From NCBI GenBank assembly GCA_023140385.1, contig JAGLLT010000039.1:1-34380 (forward strand): 34,380 nt of DNA, in the 5' to 3' direction. The stretch is from Candidatus Omnitrophota bacterium. Its GTDB lineage: Bacteria > Omnitrophota > Gorgyraeia > JAGLLT01. The position numbers are program-made. Of this stretch, positions 27,001-33,000 are shown one piece after another. Positions within the stretch are counted from its first letter, which is position 1, and every line of letters starts with the position of its first letter.

Positions 27001-30000
27001 TTACGACGCCGGTATTCTTACTTCGGCTAAACCTTTGGCTGATTATTACGAGAAGTGTCTTGTAATTTTGGCGGAGCCGAAAGAAGTCGCCAACTGGTTA
27101 GCGGGGGCGGTTATGGCGGAGCTGAACGCGAGAAACGAAAACTTTTCTTCAATTAAGCTCAAGCCGGAAGAGCTGGTTGAGATGATTAAACTGGTAAGAG
27201 ACGGTAAAATTAATTCCAAAGCGGCCAAAGAAGTCGTCCTGCCCGAAATCATAGAAGGCGGGAAAAAGACATCAGATATTTTAAAAGAGAAAAATATCAG
27301 TCAGGTTTCGGATGAAGGAGAGATAGGTAAAATTGCTGATGAGGTAATCAGGCGAAACGAAAAATCAGTAAATGACTTCAAGGAAGGCAAAAAAAATGCT
27401 ATAATGTACTTGGTAGGCCAGGTAATGAAGGGCAGTAAAGGCCGCGCCAATCCTAAGACAGTAAAGGAGATTTTAGAGAAGAGGCTAAGTGAATAGTTTT
27501 GTAAATTGTGGTTTCATTGAAAGGATTTAATTAGATGAAGAAGCGTAGGATTTTATTATGGATAATTATGGCGGGCCTTATTACCGGCCTGGGCTTGGGC
27601 AGCGGCGTTTGTCTTCAGAAGAGTGAAAAGGAGAGGGAGCTTTATAGCTCTTTGGAACTTTTTTCTCACGCCCTGTCAATGATACAGTCTAAGTATGTCG
27701 AGGAGATTGATTCAAAGGATTTAATTTACGGGGCTCTAAAAGGAATGCTTTATTCACTTGATCCCTATAGCCAGTTTTTAGACCCGGATTCGTACAAGGA
27801 TATGCAGGTTCACACGGAAGGAAAGTTCGGCGGGCTGGGAATTGAGATAGCTATTAAAGATAATCTTCTGACTATTATCACGCCTATACACGGCACGCCG
27901 GCGGATAAAGCCGGAGTCAAGGCGGGTGACAGGATAATAAAAATTGATGGTGAAAGCAGTGAGGGAATAACTCTGCTGGATTCGGTTAAGAAGTTAAGAG
28001 GTGAACCGGGGACAGAGGTGAAGCTGACCATATTCAGAGAAAAGGCGGGTAAGGTTTTAGAGATTAGCATTATTCGTGACATTATAAAAATAGAGAGCCT
28101 GAAGGGGCAGAGGATTCTTGAAAACAATATCGGTTATATAAGACTCGTTGAGTTTCAGGAAGAGAGCTCCGAGGAGTTTGAAAAAGCCATTATTGAATTG
28201 AAAAAAGAAGGTATGGATGCCTTAATTCTGGATTTGAGGAACAACCCCGGGGGGCTTTTGGACAGCGCGGTTAACATAGCCGATATGTTTGTGCCCAAAA
28301 ATAAACTTTTAGTTACCACCAAAGGCAGAGAAGGCGAGCAGACCTACACCTTTAAATCAAGGAGAGAGCCCCTTTTAGAGGAAGAGGTGCCTATAGTGGT
28401 TATGGTCAATCAGGGTTCGGCCAGCGGAGCCGAGATTTTAGCGGCTGTTTTACAGGATTATAAAAGAGCGGTTCTTATCGGACAAAAAACCTTTGGTAAG
28501 GGTTCTGTGCAGACGATTATACCTTTAGTTGACGGGTCTGCTTTAAGAATTACTACGAGCAAATATTTCTTGCCCAGCGGCCGCTCCATACATGAGAAGG
28601 GGATTATGCCCGATGTGGTGGTTGAAGATAAGCTTATGGAAATGAACGCGGAAGAAAAGTCAAAGGTTTTTTTTGATGAAGTAGAAAGAAAAGAAAACGG
28701 AGAAATCGCGGCTGAAGAGGCGGAAGCGTATGATTACCAGCTGAAGAGAGCGATTGATCTGATTAAAGGTTTAAGGGTTTATTCTGAAAGACGTTTTAAT
28801 GATAAAGAATAAGCTAAAAAGATGTTGATTTTAGGTATTGAGACTTCCTGTGATGAGACCGCGGCTTCTGTAGTAAAAGACGGCAGGGAAATTCTTTCTA
28901 ATATTATTTTATCGAGTATTGATTTACATAAAAAATTTGGGGGAATAATTCCCGAAATAGCGCATAGATTTCATCTGAAGTTTATTCGGCAAGTTGTCGA
29001 AAAAGCCCTGGATGAAGCTAATGTTTCCCTGAAAAGAATAGATGCTATAGCTGTCACCTATGGACCGGGCCTTATGGGGGCGCTGTTGGTAGGAGTTTCA
29101 TACGCTAAATCTGCATCTTTCGCTTTAGATAAACCCTTGATTGGAGTAAATCACCTGCAGGCGCATATTTACGCGCCTTTAATGACGCAGGATGTTAATT
29201 TTCCTTTTATAGGGTTAGTAGTTTCCGGGGGGCATACTCTGCTGGTGTTGGTAAAAGACTTTGATAGCTACCGGCTTATAGGAGAGACTCGGGATGACGC
29301 GGCCGGAGAGGCATTTGACAAAGTGGCTAAGATGCTGAATCTCGGGTATCCTGGGGGGCCGGTTATAGACAGGCTGGCAAAGGGCCGGGGAGGCAGAGGA
29401 GTTGACTTTCCGCGTTCATATTTAGGCAGAGACTCCTTTGATTTTAGTTTTAGCGGCCTTAAAACCTCGGTTTTGTATTGTATCAAAAGAAAACTGAAAC
29501 AGGGAAAGCTTAGCAGGCAGGACAAGGTTAACATTGCCAGCGGCTTTCAGGAATCGGTAGTTGACGTTTTAGTTGACAAAAGTATAGCTGCCTGCGAAAA
29601 AAACAGAGTTGGCGCTCTTGTAGTTGGCGGAGGAGTAAGCCGCAACTCAAGGCTCAAAGAGCGTCTTTTGGAAAAAGCCGGAAGGTGCGGTGTCAGAGTG
29701 TGTTTTCCCGCCGGTGAGTTGTGCCTTGATAACGCGGCCATGATAAGCGGCCTGGCTTACCGGAAGTACAAAAAGAATTTAATCTCTGATTTGCGGTTAG
29801 TTCCAAAATCAGATTTAAGAATTTAAGGAGAAAAATGGGAGATCTAAAGACTGTTGTTTGCCGTTTGATTTTAACTATGGTGCTTAGCGGATTGATAGGA
29901 GTAGAAAGAGAAACGCACGGGCGCGCGGCGGGCCTGCGAACGCATATTTTAGTTGGTGTTGGTTCTACCCTGATACTACTCACTTCAATATATATGGCTG

Positions 30001-33000
30001 AGACAATCATTGGAGGGGCCTCAGTTGACCCCGGCAGAGTAGCGGCCGGTGTAATTACGGGTATTGGATTTATAGGCGCCGGTACCATTATAAGATTTCG
30101 CGCCTCGGTTAAAGGATTGACGACAGCGGCGAGTTTGTGGGCGACGGCAGGTGTGGGCCTCGCGGTCGGCTGCGGTTTTTATACGGGTGCTTTCGCGGCC
30201 ACCTTTTTAATATTGTTTTCCCTGGTTTTTCTGGGACGTTTTGAAAAAAGGATAATTAAGAAGATCAGATGCAGGTCTCTTGAAGTAAAAACATCTGCCA
30301 GCGCCGAACAGCTTCATCGCATAAGGGCTATTCTTTCTGATTATAATGTTCGTATAAAAGATCTGGAAATAGATAAATTGGAGGAGCCCGAAATGATAAA
30401 ATTGATTGTTGATGTAGAATTATCCGGTGGGCGTGAGGATGAACAGATAATTAATGATCTCATGAAGATTGAAGGAGTGCGAAAAGCCGGTTGGCTTAAA
30501 AAGGAGAGGGAGGTGAAAGAAAATGTTTAAGCATCCTAAAAAAGATACAGATGAAGACAGGCACAATGTTCTTGATATGGATGCCAGTATGCAGGGGAGC
30601 TTAGTATTTAAAGACCATGTAGATTTAAAGATTAGCGGCAAGTTTGAAGGAAGCCTGGAGGTTAAAGGCAGTCTGACTGTCGGAGAGATGGCGGTAGTCA
30701 ACGCGGAAATAAAAGGCGAGGAGATTACCATTTCAGGGAAAGTGATGGGTGACATTAGCGCTACTTCCAGATTGAGTCTTACGGGAACAGCCAGAATAAT
30801 AGGTGACATTAGTACACCGGTTTTGGAGGTGCAGGAGGGGGCGGTTTTGCAGGGCAATTGCCAGATGCTTACTCAGGAGCAAAAGGCGGGCAGTATTAAA
30901 AAGCAGGCTCTTAACTGCCAGCAGCTCGCGGAATATCTGGAGGTAGGTTTGAATGAGGTTGATGAATGGATTAAAAATCATAAGATTCCCGCTTTTAAGG
31001 AAAATAACGAATGGAAGTTTGATAAGGCCAAGATAGATGCTTGGGTGGCCACGGAAAAAATTAAATAGGGCTGTGAAGTTGAAACGGTTTAATTTTTAAT
31101 GTAAGGAAAAAGGGGAATGCAGGAAAAACTGTTGAGCTTAAAGGCGGCGGCTGATTATCTGGGAATATCCGAAAAGAAACTCAAAGAGCTTTCTGATTAT
31201 GGAGTTATACCGGCATACAGAATTGCCGGTATCTATTTGCGTTTTAGACGAAGCCAGCTTCTGAATCTCAAAGATAAGATATCCGGTATACAAGCTCAAT
31301 ACGCTAAATACCAACAGGCACGGGTCGCCTATGAAGAAAAGACACCTTATGGTTTAGGTGACAGGCTGAAGGATTTTTGGCACTTTTACGATTTCTATAT
31401 TATCAGCCTTCTGCTTATTGTTATCATTTTAGCGATAATATTTCGCTATAACTTATGACTTAGCGGTAACTACTTAAAAAGTATAAAAAGATAAATTTTT
31501 TATGGGTATTGAAACAATTTATTTAATTATAGCTGTTGTCCTGGGATTTTATATGGCTTGGAACATAGGCGCCAATGATATGGCTAACTCTATGGCCAGC
31601 GCTGTCGGGGCTAAAGCTATTACGCTGAAACAAGCCGTTATAATCAGCGGCGTCCTCTGTTTTATCGGAGCTACATTTATCGGAGGCAGTGTAACAGACA
31701 CCATTAAAAAAGGCATTATTGACCCGGCTTGTGTCGGTGACTTAGAAGTTATGATTAAGGGCCTCTTGGCTACGCTTCTGGCTGCCAGCGCCTGGATTAC
31801 CTTTGCTACCTGGCGCGCCTGGCCGGTTTCAACAACTCACTCAATAGTAGGCGCTCTGGTTGGTTTTGGGGTATTTTCTGCCGGCATTAATTCGATAAAC
31901 TGGAATAAGTTAGCCGGTGTGGCAATCAGCTGGGTTACCTCTCCTTTATTCGCGGGAGTCCTTGCTTATTTCATTTTTAAAATAATTTATAGATGTATAT
32001 TGAGCGTTGATGAAAGTGAAAAGGCGTCGATAAAAATTGGCCCGGTGTTTGTAGGGTTTACCTTCTTTCTGATGATAATTTCTCTTTTGCTAAAAAGCCC
32101 CCTGGGAAAAGTGTTAGAGCTGGCCATATGGCAGAGCTTTTTTATTGCCGTCTTAGGAGGAGTTATCAGCTTGATAGGCGGGTATTATTTTATAAAAAAA
32201 GCTGTGAAGGCGGGCGCGAAGGTAGAGGATATATTTAAAGTACTGCAGATTATGACTTCCTGCTATATCGCTTTTTCCATCGGGGCCAACGATGTAGCTA
32301 ATGCCGTGGGGCCCGTCGCGGGCATTTTTTCTATTTTAAAAAATAATACCTTAGGAACCAAGGTTGAAGTACCGGTAGCCCTTCTGGCTATGGGCGGAGT
32401 GGGCATAGCAATCGGTATGTCTACCTGGGGTTATAGAGTTATTTCTACAGTAGGAAGCAAGATTACGGAGTTGACGAACTCAAGGGGTTTTTCGATAGAT
32501 TTTTCAGCGGCTACAAGTGTTCTTCTGGCTTCCAAGCTGGGTATGCCGGTTTCTACCACCCACGCGGTTATCGGAGCGGTTTGCGGTGTCGGCTTAGCCA
32601 GGGGCCTGGATGCGGTGGATTTCAGGGTTGTTAAGAAAATAATTATCTCCTGGGTAGTTACCATACCGGCCTCAGCCGTAATGTGCGTTTTGTTTTTTAA
32701 ATTCTTTATGTGGCTTTTTTAAATAAATGATAAAGGTTTATAAAACCCCTTGCTTAAATAAGCTTGGGATTAATATATATTAAATGCTTCCGCCTCGAAA
32801 GATGTCTCAAAATTCTCTTCGACAATTTTGCGACTCTCGGCGGAATTAATTCGGGCAGATATTTTACACCAACTTCGTTGTTGTAAAAGATGCCCTCATT
32901 AAGGAGGTAATGTTATGTTTAGAAGAATACCTATACTGTCTATTTTGCGCAAATCGCCATTTGAAGATTTAGTTAGGCACGCGGCGAAGGTTAATGAGTG

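Follow-up and report, generated by a model that had tools for sequence, protein, structure and literature searches.

A bactofilin with a built-in winged helix-turn-helix in Omnitrophota, and its possible role in holding DNA near the membrane

RodZ, a cytoplasmic helix-turn-helix (HTH) joined to a membrane anchor, serves a cytoskeletal polymer, and its HTH binds MreB, not DNA. In Bacillus subtilis, the HTH protein BacR is reported to be encoded in one operon with bactofilins and to be bound by BacE/BacF through a modelled interface near the HTH, a binding that excludes DNA, and the bactofilins are reported to recruit BacR to the membrane (PMC13649987). In Myxococcus xanthus, a bactofilin scaffold, BacNOP, is described as linked to chromosome segregation through PadC and ParB/ParA (PMC5703909), and MFSKKKK is given as the global consensus of the bactofilin membrane-targeting sequence (PMC12448750). 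Two winged HTH (wHTH) proteins are also relevant here. BldC is reported to form head-to-tail multimers on DNA, with wing arginines in the minor groove, Trp31 on the backbone, the amide of Asp24 on a phosphate and Arg30 making bidentate base contacts, the R30A change abolishing binding (PMC5859096). RacA, which consists of a wHTH, a disordered linker and a self-associating domain and anchors chromosomes, is described as binding DNA in a specific as well as a non-specific way, largely by phosphate contacts; its Arg19 makes bidentate base contacts and R19A abolishes binding (PMC4914108). Among the papers listed for bactofilins with HTH-related terms, none describes a bactofilin with a fused HTH. 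We report here such a protein, in which a DNA-binding-type domain is built into the bactofilin itself and which is conserved over most of an uncultured phylum without detected FtsZ.

The window, i.e., the whole stretch of 34,380 nucleotides analysed, carries on its forward strand a block of four genes. It begins with tsaD (28822-29826; Pfam TsaD 2.8e-92, TIGR03723 6.1e-124, over cut-off), whose product acts in t6A tRNA modification and which forms the conserved upstream anchor of the block. A gene for a membrane protein of the MgtC/SapB family follows (29835-30530; Pfam MgtC 1.3e-37), its stop overlapping by 8 nt the start of the bactofilin-HTH fusion gene (30523-31068, 181 aa; open reading frame with Pfam Bactofilin and HTH_17 matches). 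Next comes the gene of a tail-anchored HTH_17 protein, here called HTH-TM (31117-31458, 113 aa; open reading frame and Pfam HTH_17). The survey's finding that this order is kept, drawn from five of five loci, holds in a wider set: HTH-TM lies directly downstream of the fusion in all 97 distinct loci with room for it; upstream, 49 of 51 loci with room have tsaD and 69 of 87 have mgtC.

The fusion protein is a genuine bactofilin by family match and fold, and the Pfam domains and the AlphaFold2 model agree with the architecture first proposed: a basic N-terminal tail (residues 1-15, MFKHPKK..., 30523-30567), a beta-helix polymerisation domain (residues 16-115, 30568-30867), a flexible linker of 13 residues (116-128, 30868-30906) and a MerR/excisionase-type wHTH (residues 129-181 and stop, 30907-31068). 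The Bactofilin family (PF04519) matches residues 16-114 at 5.7e-24 (84.7 bits vs a cut-off of 27.9). The AlphaFold2 model, made with 40 sequences, has a mean pLDDT of 80.3, its 10-residue blocks averaging 87-95 over residues 21-110 and about 80 over 131-170, with values below 50 for segments 1-13 and 118-126, and thus reproduces the earlier description. In VIA-align the beta-helix matches the Thermus thermophilus bactofilin TtBac (6rib) with Z 18.7 and rmsd 1.1 over 98 aligned residues, and BacA (2n3d) with Z 16.2; profile matches in the PDB are BacA at 9.9e-12 and TtBac at 1.8e-9. The position aligned to TtBac F105, the residue altered in the crystallised F105R mutant according to the PDB title, is hydrophobic (L, F, I, M or V) in all 119 relatives. 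Family tails, 14 aa long at the median, have 3.84 K/R among their first 10 residues; in 74/117 a hydrophobic residue stands at positions 2-4, and in 33/117 an F, so that the tail is possibly a membrane-targeting sequence. The linker varies between 9 and 22 residues (median 13). Other C-terminal modules are also found on bactofilins of the same type, e.g., PilZ in P0159.

The C-terminal domain belongs to HTH_17 (PF12728, residues 133-177, 7.5e-9, 36.2 bits vs a cut-off of 27), and NCBIfam returned for the block an excisionase-family HTH match as well as a MADS1-type HTH match below its cut-off. Its modelled elements are a1 (132-138), a2 (143-151), the wing (158-167) and a3 (168-180). In VIA-align it matches RdfS (8dgl, Z 8.2), BldC (6ama, Z 8.2; 6amk, Z 7.9), the GIsul2 excisionase (Z 7.9) and Pukovnik Xis (Z 7.3), and in sequence the PDB entries next after the bactofilins are BldC (0.032), RacA (0.073) and Xis Gp37 (0.073). 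The closest solved wHTHs, namely BldC, RacA, excisionases, the MerR-type NmlR and SoxR and pSK1 Par, all come from DNA-binding proteins. Y138, L139, F166 and W174 are invariant in a 40-sequence alignment, as proposed before, whereas D172, formerly counted with them, is kept in at least 90% of sequences. Among 119 relatives, five basic positions surrounding the wing are conserved, 154 (117), 159 (116), 165 (106), 168 (116) and 170 (89), as is W149 (117); W149 falls on Trp31 of BldC and D/E142 on Asp24, in an alignment that may be off by one residue in the wing because hhalign places a gap there. Positions 140, 142, 148, 160, 167 and 172 are conserved as acidic. Among them, position 148, equivalent to BldC Arg30 and RacA Arg19, is E in 55 and D in 31 relatives (86/119) and K in 11, and position 140, equivalent to BldC Arg22, is E in 112 and D in 6 of 119; the position aligned to BldC Lys26 and RacA Lys15 is basic in only 4/119. 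Over the C-terminal 53 residues the net charge averages -2.0 (range -5 to +1, n = 119), compared to +4 to +7 for the genome's three free-standing HTH_17 proteins. The claim that this bactofilin binds DNA by itself is therefore right as to the fold, but the base-reading arginine position is acidic and the domain is net negative.

HTH-TM comprises a wHTH (residues 1-52, 31117-31272; PF12728 at 5-49, 6.9e-7), a variable helical spacer (55-75, 31279-31341) and a juxtamembrane motif leading into the C-terminal transmembrane helix (residues 80-113 and stop, 31354-31458; modelled helix 80-112). The model (pLDDT averaging 87.5 over the full protein) places strands at 5-7, 34-36 and 40-44 and helices at 8-15, 19-27 and 45-52, and hhalign relates this domain to the fusion wHTH with 96.8% probability over 52 columns. 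Its sequences have R42 and K/R44 in 97/97 cases and K/R35 in 82/97. Over 37 orthologues the spacer length varies, whole proteins measuring 94-133 aa, and the motif DF.[YH]F.DFYI continues into the transmembrane helix as a tail anchor, with D86, F87, F90, D92 and F93 kept in at least 90% and Y94 invariant; 0-5 residues follow the hydrophobic stretch.

A search with the fusion yielded 186 relatives at E<=1e-3, of 262 candidates. All of the 120 whose matches were listed carry PF04519 and PF12728, and the taxon names among the matches listed are only Omnitrophota, Omnitrophica or Ca. Kappaea, which bears out the proposed restriction to the phylum as far as relatives carry names. The genome itself (1.495 Mb, 92.69% complete) has a single bactofilin match, the fusion gene. 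In a sample of 201 genomes of the phylum, 188 match at E<=1e-3, 173 of them strongly and over full length (E<=2.7e-20) and 15 only weakly (E 2.6e-7 to 7.7e-4), while 13 have no match at that threshold; conservation is thus wide, both within the class to which the window belongs and across the other sampled classes. When 10 near-complete genomes (94-99%) in which the fusion query had failed were chosen and searched for the Bactofilin domain, nine had no match and the tenth a bactofilin remnant with an in-frame stop. The gene is cleanly absent from at least eight genomes that are 95-100% complete, the order being tsaD-mgtC-HTH-TM in G015, G033 and G163 and tsaD-HTH-TM in G047, G063, G093, G087 and G109; the six of these eight searched with the family had no Bactofilin-domain match. 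Along with the bactofilin, mgtC is missing in family f10, where tsaD immediately precedes HTH-TM, but it is kept in bactofilin-less genomes of genus g6. The filament is therefore dispensable. HTH-TM, retained at full length in such genomes, must work without the bactofilin, and the survey's "partner" is hence a gene that always stands beside the fusion where the fusion exists and is kept where it is absent.

The boldest proposal, a DNA-binding filament replacing FtsZ and Min at the division site or in chromosome partitioning, is very improbable. The absence on which it was built is supported, since FtsZ was found in 0/201 sampled genomes (nor in the genome itself with PF00091) and MinD over the family cut-off in 0/101, and the fusion, present in 173/201 genomes, is the only bactofilin of its own genome. 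However, of the near-complete genomes without the fusion none has FtsZ, including the nine of ten chosen ones devoid of the Bactofilin domain, so that the filament is not the replacement of FtsZ and a signature tied to FtsZ loss is weakened. The co-occurrence of the fusion with this loss spans the whole phylum and so counts phylogenetically as a single event. Moreover, the FtsA family is kept in 47/61 genomes (E<=1e-40), and the genome encodes an ftsW-murG-murC-murB-ddl-ftsQ-ftsA run, MreB, a separate RodZ_C protein and, on a different contig, a canonical parA-parB-dnaA region (ParA-like, ParB, DnaA), genes that weaken the suggestion that the fusion partitions the chromosome.

We tentatively favour a polymer close to the membrane that displays arrays of wHTHs and, through them, holds DNA with no sequence specificity. 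The fusion product would be a nucleotide-independent polymer, probably at the cytoplasmic membrane, to which it would be held by its basic tail and/or the neighbouring membrane proteins, and each subunit would carry its wHTH on the 9-22-residue linker, so that the filament would show an array of domains. DNA would be the most likely ligand, contacted by W149 and the basic wing, both conserved, with no base reading by the recognition helix, and the multivalency of the polymer would make this holding effective. Together with the tail-anchored HTH-TM, whose wing is more canonical, the filament may hold the nucleoid at the membrane or organise it there, in an accessory function. The nearest solved wHTHs, which all bind DNA, and the conserved basic wing positions and W149 argue for DNA, and the linkage to HTH-TM in 97/97 loci also counts in favour of this reading; the acidic residue at the Arg30/Arg19 position, the rarely basic Lys26/Lys15 position, the net negative charge and E140 at BldC Arg22 argue against DNA, as do the bactofilin-less lineages and the canonical ParB/ParA-like/DnaA region against nucleoid holding. 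A close rival, in itself rather doubtful, is that the wHTH has lost DNA binding and become a protein-docking module on an ordinary membrane scaffold that positions envelope or morphogenesis proteins, a client (as candidates, HTH-TM, the MgtC-like protein or another factor) being recruited through the conserved acidic helix and the basic wing. The same acidic features favour it, as do the membrane proteins encoded on both flanks, the mgtC overlap, the alternative C-terminal modules such as PilZ and the example of RodZ, whose HTH binds MreB and not DNA. BacR with BacE/BacF in B. subtilis offers a reported precedent (PMC13649987). On the other hand, neither HTH-TM nor mgtC is an obligate partner, because HTH-TM persists without bactofilin and mgtC is absent from 18/87 loci, all solved relatives of the domain that turned up bind DNA, and the five basic wing-side positions correspond to the side of BldC and RacA that faces DNA.

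That one or both HTHs bind a specific operator, for autoregulation or a small regulon, with polymerisation or anchoring sequestering and releasing them as in the BacR-BacEF switch, seems unlikely, even though HTH_17 and MerR-type domains mostly belong to transcription or recombination factors and BacR is a precedent for bactofilins coupled to a regulator. Neither HTH could shuttle unless cut loose by proteolysis, since one is fixed for good by the fusion and the other by a tail anchor without sensor domain outside the membrane. The positions of the recognition helix vary or are acidic, the operon and its flanks show no conspicuous repeat or palindrome, and promoter-like sequences number 15 vs 14.8 after shuffling. 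A tether fits better than a diffusible regulator because neither HTH can leave its support.

Compared to known bactofilins, the fusion has the same PF04519 beta-helix as Caulobacter BacA (2n3d) and Thermus TtBac (6rib/6ria), with 28-29% identity (Z 16.2 and 18.7), a conserved hydrophobic residue at TtBac F105 and, in the window's clade, a basic N-terminal tail resembling the MFSKKKK consensus, but it ends in a folded wHTH where these have short unstructured C-terminal tails. In BacNOP, as described, the DNA link is indirect, via an adaptor and ParB, whereas the fusion carries a DNA-binding-type domain itself. The locus resembles that of BacR (YhbD, DUF4004) with BacE/BacF in having an HTH protein beside bactofilins; however, BacR is reported to be separate and soluble, to shuttle to the nucleoid and to regulate its operon, and DUF4004 had no Pfam match in either protein at E<=0.01. 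The layout of RodZ is a model for HTH-TM, although RodZ carries a periplasmic domain and its HTH is of the XRE type, HTH-TM ends 0-5 residues past its helix, and the genome has its RodZ_C protein besides. Streptomyces BldC (6ama/6amk) is the best wHTH match (Z 8.2 and 7.9, E 0.032), the aligned a2 regions agreeing at D, V, W and G-K positions, but it is a free 68-residue protein and its Arg30, Lys26 and Arg22 are replaced by E/D148, S/A144 and E140; by analogy, a polymer-borne wHTH array could act on DNA like BldC multimers. Finally, RacA of B. subtilis (5i41/5i44) likewise joins a MerR-like wHTH to a self-associating domain through a disordered linker (Foldseek TM by target 0.58-0.60, vs 0.62 for pSK1 Par, 8csh; sequence E 0.073), and it is described as tethering the chromosome to a pole protein associated with the membrane. 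RacA has its domains in the opposite order, however, and oligomerises by a coiled coil and not a beta-helix polymer; its Lys15 and Arg19, reported as completely conserved, are not kept in the fusion, and the protein is described as sporulation-specific.

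The gene under study encodes a protein of 181 aa in which a bactofilin is fused to a helix-turn-helix (HTH) domain, and belongs to a block of four co-directional genes on the forward strand (28822-31458). This block comprises tsaD (28822-29826), a gene for a membrane protein of the MgtC/SapB family (29835-30530), the stop of which overlaps the fusion start by 8 nt, the fusion itself (30523-31068; Bactofilin and HTH_17 according to Pfam) and, 48 nt past it, the gene of an HTH_17 protein of 113 aa with a hydrophobic C-terminus (31117-31458), hereafter HTH-TM. Upstream of the block are found gatB and a gene for a CtpA-type S41 protease, and downstream of the pair a PiT (PHO4) phosphate transporter and a PhoU_div (DUF47) protein recognized by Pfam (31502-33583). 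Since PiT occurs in only 8 fetched loci, many of those loci having short downstream flanks, it was considered to lie outside the conserved block. Open reading frames were re-called from stop to stop and profile-searched, identical fusion proteins being counted once and two loci without room excluded; the HTH-TM gene lay directly 3' of the fusion and on the same strand in all 97 distinct loci with room for it, and mgtC and tsaD were found upstream in 69 of 87 and 49 of 51 loci, respectively. Every detail checked agrees with the survey's finding on the fusion, its neighbour and the block, both domains being recovered by Pfam and, at domain level, by NCBIfam. Scans for regulatory signals were uninformative: promoter-like sites numbered 15 for 14.8 expected, a terminator scan revealed none between genes, and a repeat scan in and beside the fusion gene returned only two short two-copy direct repeats. 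A location at the replication origin was set aside, as dnaA, together with parB beside a ParA-like gene, is found on contig C24 and the fusion on contig C33.

The N-terminal part of the fusion matches PF04519 over residues 16-114 (84.7 bits against a cut-off of 27.9, 5.7e-24; 85.9 bits in the whole-genome scan), with profile positions 2-98 of 98 covered. It is the single bactofilin of its genome. The AlphaFold2 model built with 40 relatives (mean pLDDT 80.3) consists of a beta-helix, a disordered linker (residues 118-126) and a C-terminal domain, and the beta-helix is confident, with blocks of 10 residues over 21-110 averaging a pLDDT of 87-95. In this predicted model, the N-terminal domain is a right-handed beta-helix superposable on solved bactofilins, namely that of T. 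thermophilus (TtBac, 6rib; Z 18.7, rmsd 1.1, 98 residues) and BacA of Caulobacter (2n3d; Z 16.2, rmsd 1.7, 101 residues). The TtBac substitution F105R reportedly blocks assembly; the aligned position is L in 80, F in 25, I in 8, M in 4 and V in 2 of 119 relatives, which is an indirect pointer to hydrophobic, end-to-end and nucleotide-independent polymerisation of the fusion. The protein starts with MFKHPKK and its clade with MFK..KK, the global membrane-targeting consensus of bactofilins being reported as MFSKKKK (PMC12448750). Across 117 relatives the N-terminal tail is basic, its first 10 residues containing 3.84 K/R; a hydrophobic residue is present at positions 2-4 in only 74 of them and F in 33, and the commonest N-terminus, MARRDRN (11 of 117), is basic with only an alanine, and no bulky hydrophobic residue, at these positions. 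In the clade of the window protein, the N-terminus is suggestive of a membrane-targeting sequence. A bactofilin of 253 aa from a 4,860-nt contig (P0159), which matches the fusion profile over positions 12-131 (1.7e-34), carries a C-terminal PilZ domain in place of the HTH domain, so that bactofilins of this type seem to accept different modules at their C-terminus.

The C-terminal domain is recognized by PF12728 (HTH_17; residues 133-177, 36.2 bits against a cut-off of 27, 7.5e-9) and by TIGR01764 (30.2 bits against 28.8). Its model (residues 129-180, pLDDT about 80) is a helix-helix-hairpin-helix domain of topology a1-a2-b1-b2-a3, with helices at 132-138, 143-151 and 168-180 and strands at 158-160 and 163-167. 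VIA-align brings it close to the excisionase RdfS (Z 8.2), BldC (8.2 and 7.9), the GIsul2 excisionase (7.9), Pukovnik Xis (7.3) and NmlR (6.8), a Z of 7-8 falling in a range that VIA-align itself calls middling. Foldseek rows for the domain include RacA-DNA and pSK1 Par at E-values of 0.17-1.2, not significant for the whole model. In a profile search of PDB sequences, BldC (0.032), RacA (0.073) and Xis Gp37 (0.073) rank next after two bactofilins, and a single-sequence PDB search with the domain alone gave no match below E 0.2. Fold search, Pfam and profile search agree on a predicted winged HTH (wHTH) of the MerR/excisionase type. The anti-phage HTH protein MADS1 (NF047737) was rejected as an identity, scores of 44.2 and 20.9 bits against an equivalog cut-off of 80 indicating likeness at domain level only. 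The wHTH part of the profile also retrieved proteins with 3 to 8 tandem HTH_17 repeats (P0190, 479 aa; P0208, 417 aa; P0179, 231 aa).

The way in which related domains contact DNA allows a closer reading of this wHTH. In BldC, Arg30 is described as making bidentate guanine contacts and Lys26 as contacting bases, phosphates being contacted by Thr27, Thr29, Lys33 and the amides of Ala15 and Asp24 and the backbone touched by Trp31; the wing (His46, Arg47, Arg48) lies in the minor groove, and R30A and H46E abolish binding (PMC5859096). RacA Arg19 and Lys15 are described as having the same roles as BldC Arg30 and Lys26 and as completely conserved, and no Kd was measurable for R19A (PMC4914108). The fusion wHTH of 119 relatives was set against these published contacts by HMMER alignment to BldC and RacA, the wing register relative to BldC being uncertain by one residue. 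Position 148, aligned with BldC Arg30 and RacA Arg19, shows mostly E (55 relatives) or D (31), with K in 11; position 144 (Lys26/Lys15) is basic in 4, position 147 in 6 and position 145 in none. Across the 119 relatives, the basic recognition-helix contacts of BldC (Lys26, Arg30) and RacA (Lys15, Arg19) are thus not kept at the aligned positions. An acidic residue, E or D, occupies position 140 (E140, opposite BldC Arg22) in 118 relatives; 117 of them retain W149, and 113 the N-cap D/E142. The wing has K or R at positions 159 (116 of 119), 165 (106) and 168 (116), and the flanking positions 154 (117) and 170 (89) are basic too. The mean net charge of the domain is -2.0 over the same relatives, compared to +4 to +7 for three free-standing HTH_17 proteins encoded in the genome under study. 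Judged from the alignment, the fused wHTH is dipolar, acidic on its helix face and basic at its wing. A sequence-specific reading in the manner of BldC or RacA is unlikely. Binding of the DNA backbone through the wing, amplified by the avidity of the polymer, is plausible, as is binding of a protein or of another polyanion.

The neighbour carries HTH_17 at residues 5-49 according to Pfam, and its model (mean pLDDT 87.5) shows a wHTH at residues 5-52, followed by a helix at 55-75 and a single long helix at 80-112, which includes the membrane anchor as well as a conserved juxtamembrane motif. By profile comparison with hhalign (96.8% probability, 17% identity), the wHTH domains of neighbour and fusion are homologous. 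The wing residues R42, invariant, and K/R44 are present in 97 of 97 neighbours, and the position aligned with Arg30 is K/R in 55 of 97; from these residues, the neighbour is a more conventional candidate DNA binder than the fusion wHTH. Net charge was set aside as only partly useful to discriminate between both HTH domains, the neighbour family averaging +0.6 and ranging from -7 to +6. Complex prediction with residues 14-181 of the fusion and 1-95 of HTH-TM scored 0.16 against a mark of 0.32 and, being run without controls, speaks neither for nor against a contact. The idea of HTH-TM as a stand-in for a missing RodZ was dropped, given a RodZ_C protein in the same genome. In 4 of the 97 orthologues (L023, L024, L036 and L107, three of them in family f8), the HTH-TM frame is intact and conserved without ATG, GTG or TTG near the expected start, and an unusual start codon is possible.

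The fusion is widespread within the phylum. In a collection of 5.8 billion proteins, 186 matches were obtained at E<=1e-3, all 120 listed carrying both domains, and the taxon names given among the matches are Omnitrophota, Omnitrophica or Ca. Kappaea. A HMMER scan of 1.84 billion cluster representatives returned 52 proteins at E<=1e-30, about 20 of which cover the full profile, and ESM Atlas clusters with both domains are labelled Omnitrophota, which is a lead only. With family-specific patterns, 538 relatives were confirmed in contigs of one genome per species, and the best 80 of them come from records titled Omnitrophota/Omnitrophica or "uncultured Planctomycetia". Titles of the latter kind may be mere placeholders and need not mean that Planctomycetia carry the fusion, and among the named protein matches and the best 80 of the 538 contig relatives the fusion was not found outside the phylum. 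Many MAG records with the fusion bear the "uncultured Planctomycetia" title (L039, L042-L044, L046, L052 and other loci), and the five that were checked are of 1.0-2.0 Mb and without FtsZ. Short bactofilin-only look-alikes (P0141-P0148) may be fragments, as their contigs measure only 556-936 nt.

Among 201 genomes of the phylum, the fusion is matched strongly and over its full length in 173 (E<=2.7e-20), only weakly in 15 and not at all in 13; the phylum-wide occurrence previously claimed holds for most genomes and fails for several near-complete ones. Ten near-complete genomes, chosen because the fusion query had failed there, were searched with the Bactofilin model, and nine gave no match. 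The sole match (34.6 bits; genome G043, locus L117, G043:C8:42997-46203) contains an in-frame TAG and is possibly a decaying gene. The genus g6 (G015, G033, G163) presents the order tsaD-mgtC-HTH-TM with the bactofilin cleanly missing, and the family f10 (G047, G063, G093, G087, G109) the order tsaD-HTH-TM; in G131 and G175, HTH-TM stands at a contig start, uninformative on the locus layout. The HTH-TM family is broader than the fusion, with matches in 198 of the 201 genomes (184 at E<=2.4e-17, mostly full-length) and 1150 relatives in the large protein collection. From these loci, the bactofilin is dispensable within a phylum devoid of FtsZ, and HTH-TM, kept in bactofilin-less genomes, works in its absence, which weakens the view of HTH-TM as a partner of the fusion.

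The reported lack of FtsZ and Min in the phylum is supported by the genomes sampled. None of 201 genomes, including 151 of high quality, gave an FtsZ match (TIGR00065), with controls detected in 13 of 14 genomes, and the genome under study has no Tubulin/FtsZ Pfam domain. No MinD was found over the cut-off in 101 genomes, the only matches being ParA/Mrp-like, at 119.8 bits or less against 212.9; the best MinD-like match of the sample (119.8 bits) comes from G043. The genome under study encodes MreB, a RodZ_C protein and FtsA, with a dcw cluster ftsW-murG-murC-murB-ddl-ftsQ-ftsA outside the window (contig C54, 412-8979), in which ftsA was named by family search and the others from order, size and N-terminal sequence. 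Two unrelated ORFs of 133 aa and 175 aa occupy the usual place of ftsZ downstream of ftsA. Members of the FtsA family turned up at E<=1e-40 in 47 of the 61 genomes sampled for them, and over the cut-off in 25 of the 61. A 2025 paper describes the dcw genes as highly conserved in a group of phyla including Ca. Omnitrophota, and the maintenance of FtsA without FtsZ seen here is unlike what it reports for Chlamydiota and most Planctomycetota (PMC12283558). An older paper left FtsZ in Omnitrophota open, and the main text of a 2023 survey of the phylum mentions neither "FtsZ" nor "bactofilin" (PMC10066038). The finding also makes the cell biology of Omnitrophota worth a closer look: no FtsZ was found in 201 genomes, yet FtsA, FtsQ, FtsW, MreB and RodZ are kept, a combination not clearly stated in the searched literature.

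We tentatively favor, at somewhat less than an even chance, a reading in which a bactofilin polymer near the membrane would display arrays of wHTH domains, these arrays would hold DNA without sequence specificity, and the polymer and the tail-anchored wHTH protein would act side by side as an accessory nucleoid-envelope tether. It is rather unlikely that the bactofilin filament is itself a DNA-binding polymer, in which the wHTH of each subunit grips DNA through its wing, and forms together with the tail-anchored wHTH protein a nucleotide-independent tether or organiser of the chromosome at the membrane in ultra-small cells devoid of FtsZ and Min; if true, this would represent a third nucleoid-envelope coupling besides ParABS and RacA/Noc-type proteins. 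That the fused wHTH would be a protein adaptor we consider somewhat unlikely. RodZ-MreB provides a precedent for an HTH acting as a cytoskeleton adaptor, and a wHTH binding protein would be the second case after RodZ of such a reuse. In the BacR-BacEF system, moreover, bactofilins are described as engaging an HTH protein near its HTH, excluding DNA and bringing the protein to the membrane (PMC13649987).

A regulatory switch has little chance of being correct, as it fits poorly with both HTH domains being immobilised. A filament replacing FtsZ and Min, as the survey's finding implied, deserves hardly any credit, being contradicted by the bactofilin-less lineages of this FtsZ-less phylum.

The novelty of the system lies in its assembly: the component families are known, and the fusion, its constant neighbour and the restriction to one phylum are new. 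To our knowledge, known bactofilins reach DNA solely via adaptors, as with PadC-ParB, or through the sequestration of a regulator, as with BacR, and no description of a bactofilin with a fused HTH was found among the papers listed from the open literature on bactofilins and HTH or Omnitrophota; a mention of "MerR" checked in one bactofilin paper proved to be the name of an author. A bactofilin with a built-in domain of DNA-binding type would offer a minimal system in which direct action of a cytoskeletal polymer on the chromosome could be tested; the fusion is small (181 aa) and both proteins of the pair should be easily expressed. The pair is similar to BacR (DUF4004) in that an HTH gene adjoins the bactofilin, and differs from it by the absence of DUF4004, Pfam identifying only HTH_17 in the neighbour and only Bactofilin and HTH_17 in the fusion at E<=0.01. 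As modelled, the fusion contains three elements of RacA in reversed order: a wHTH, a disordered linker and a putatively self-associating domain. Finally, RacA has a membrane or pole receptor, for which the tail-anchored protein encoded by the always adjacent gene (97 of 97 loci) would be a possible counterpart.
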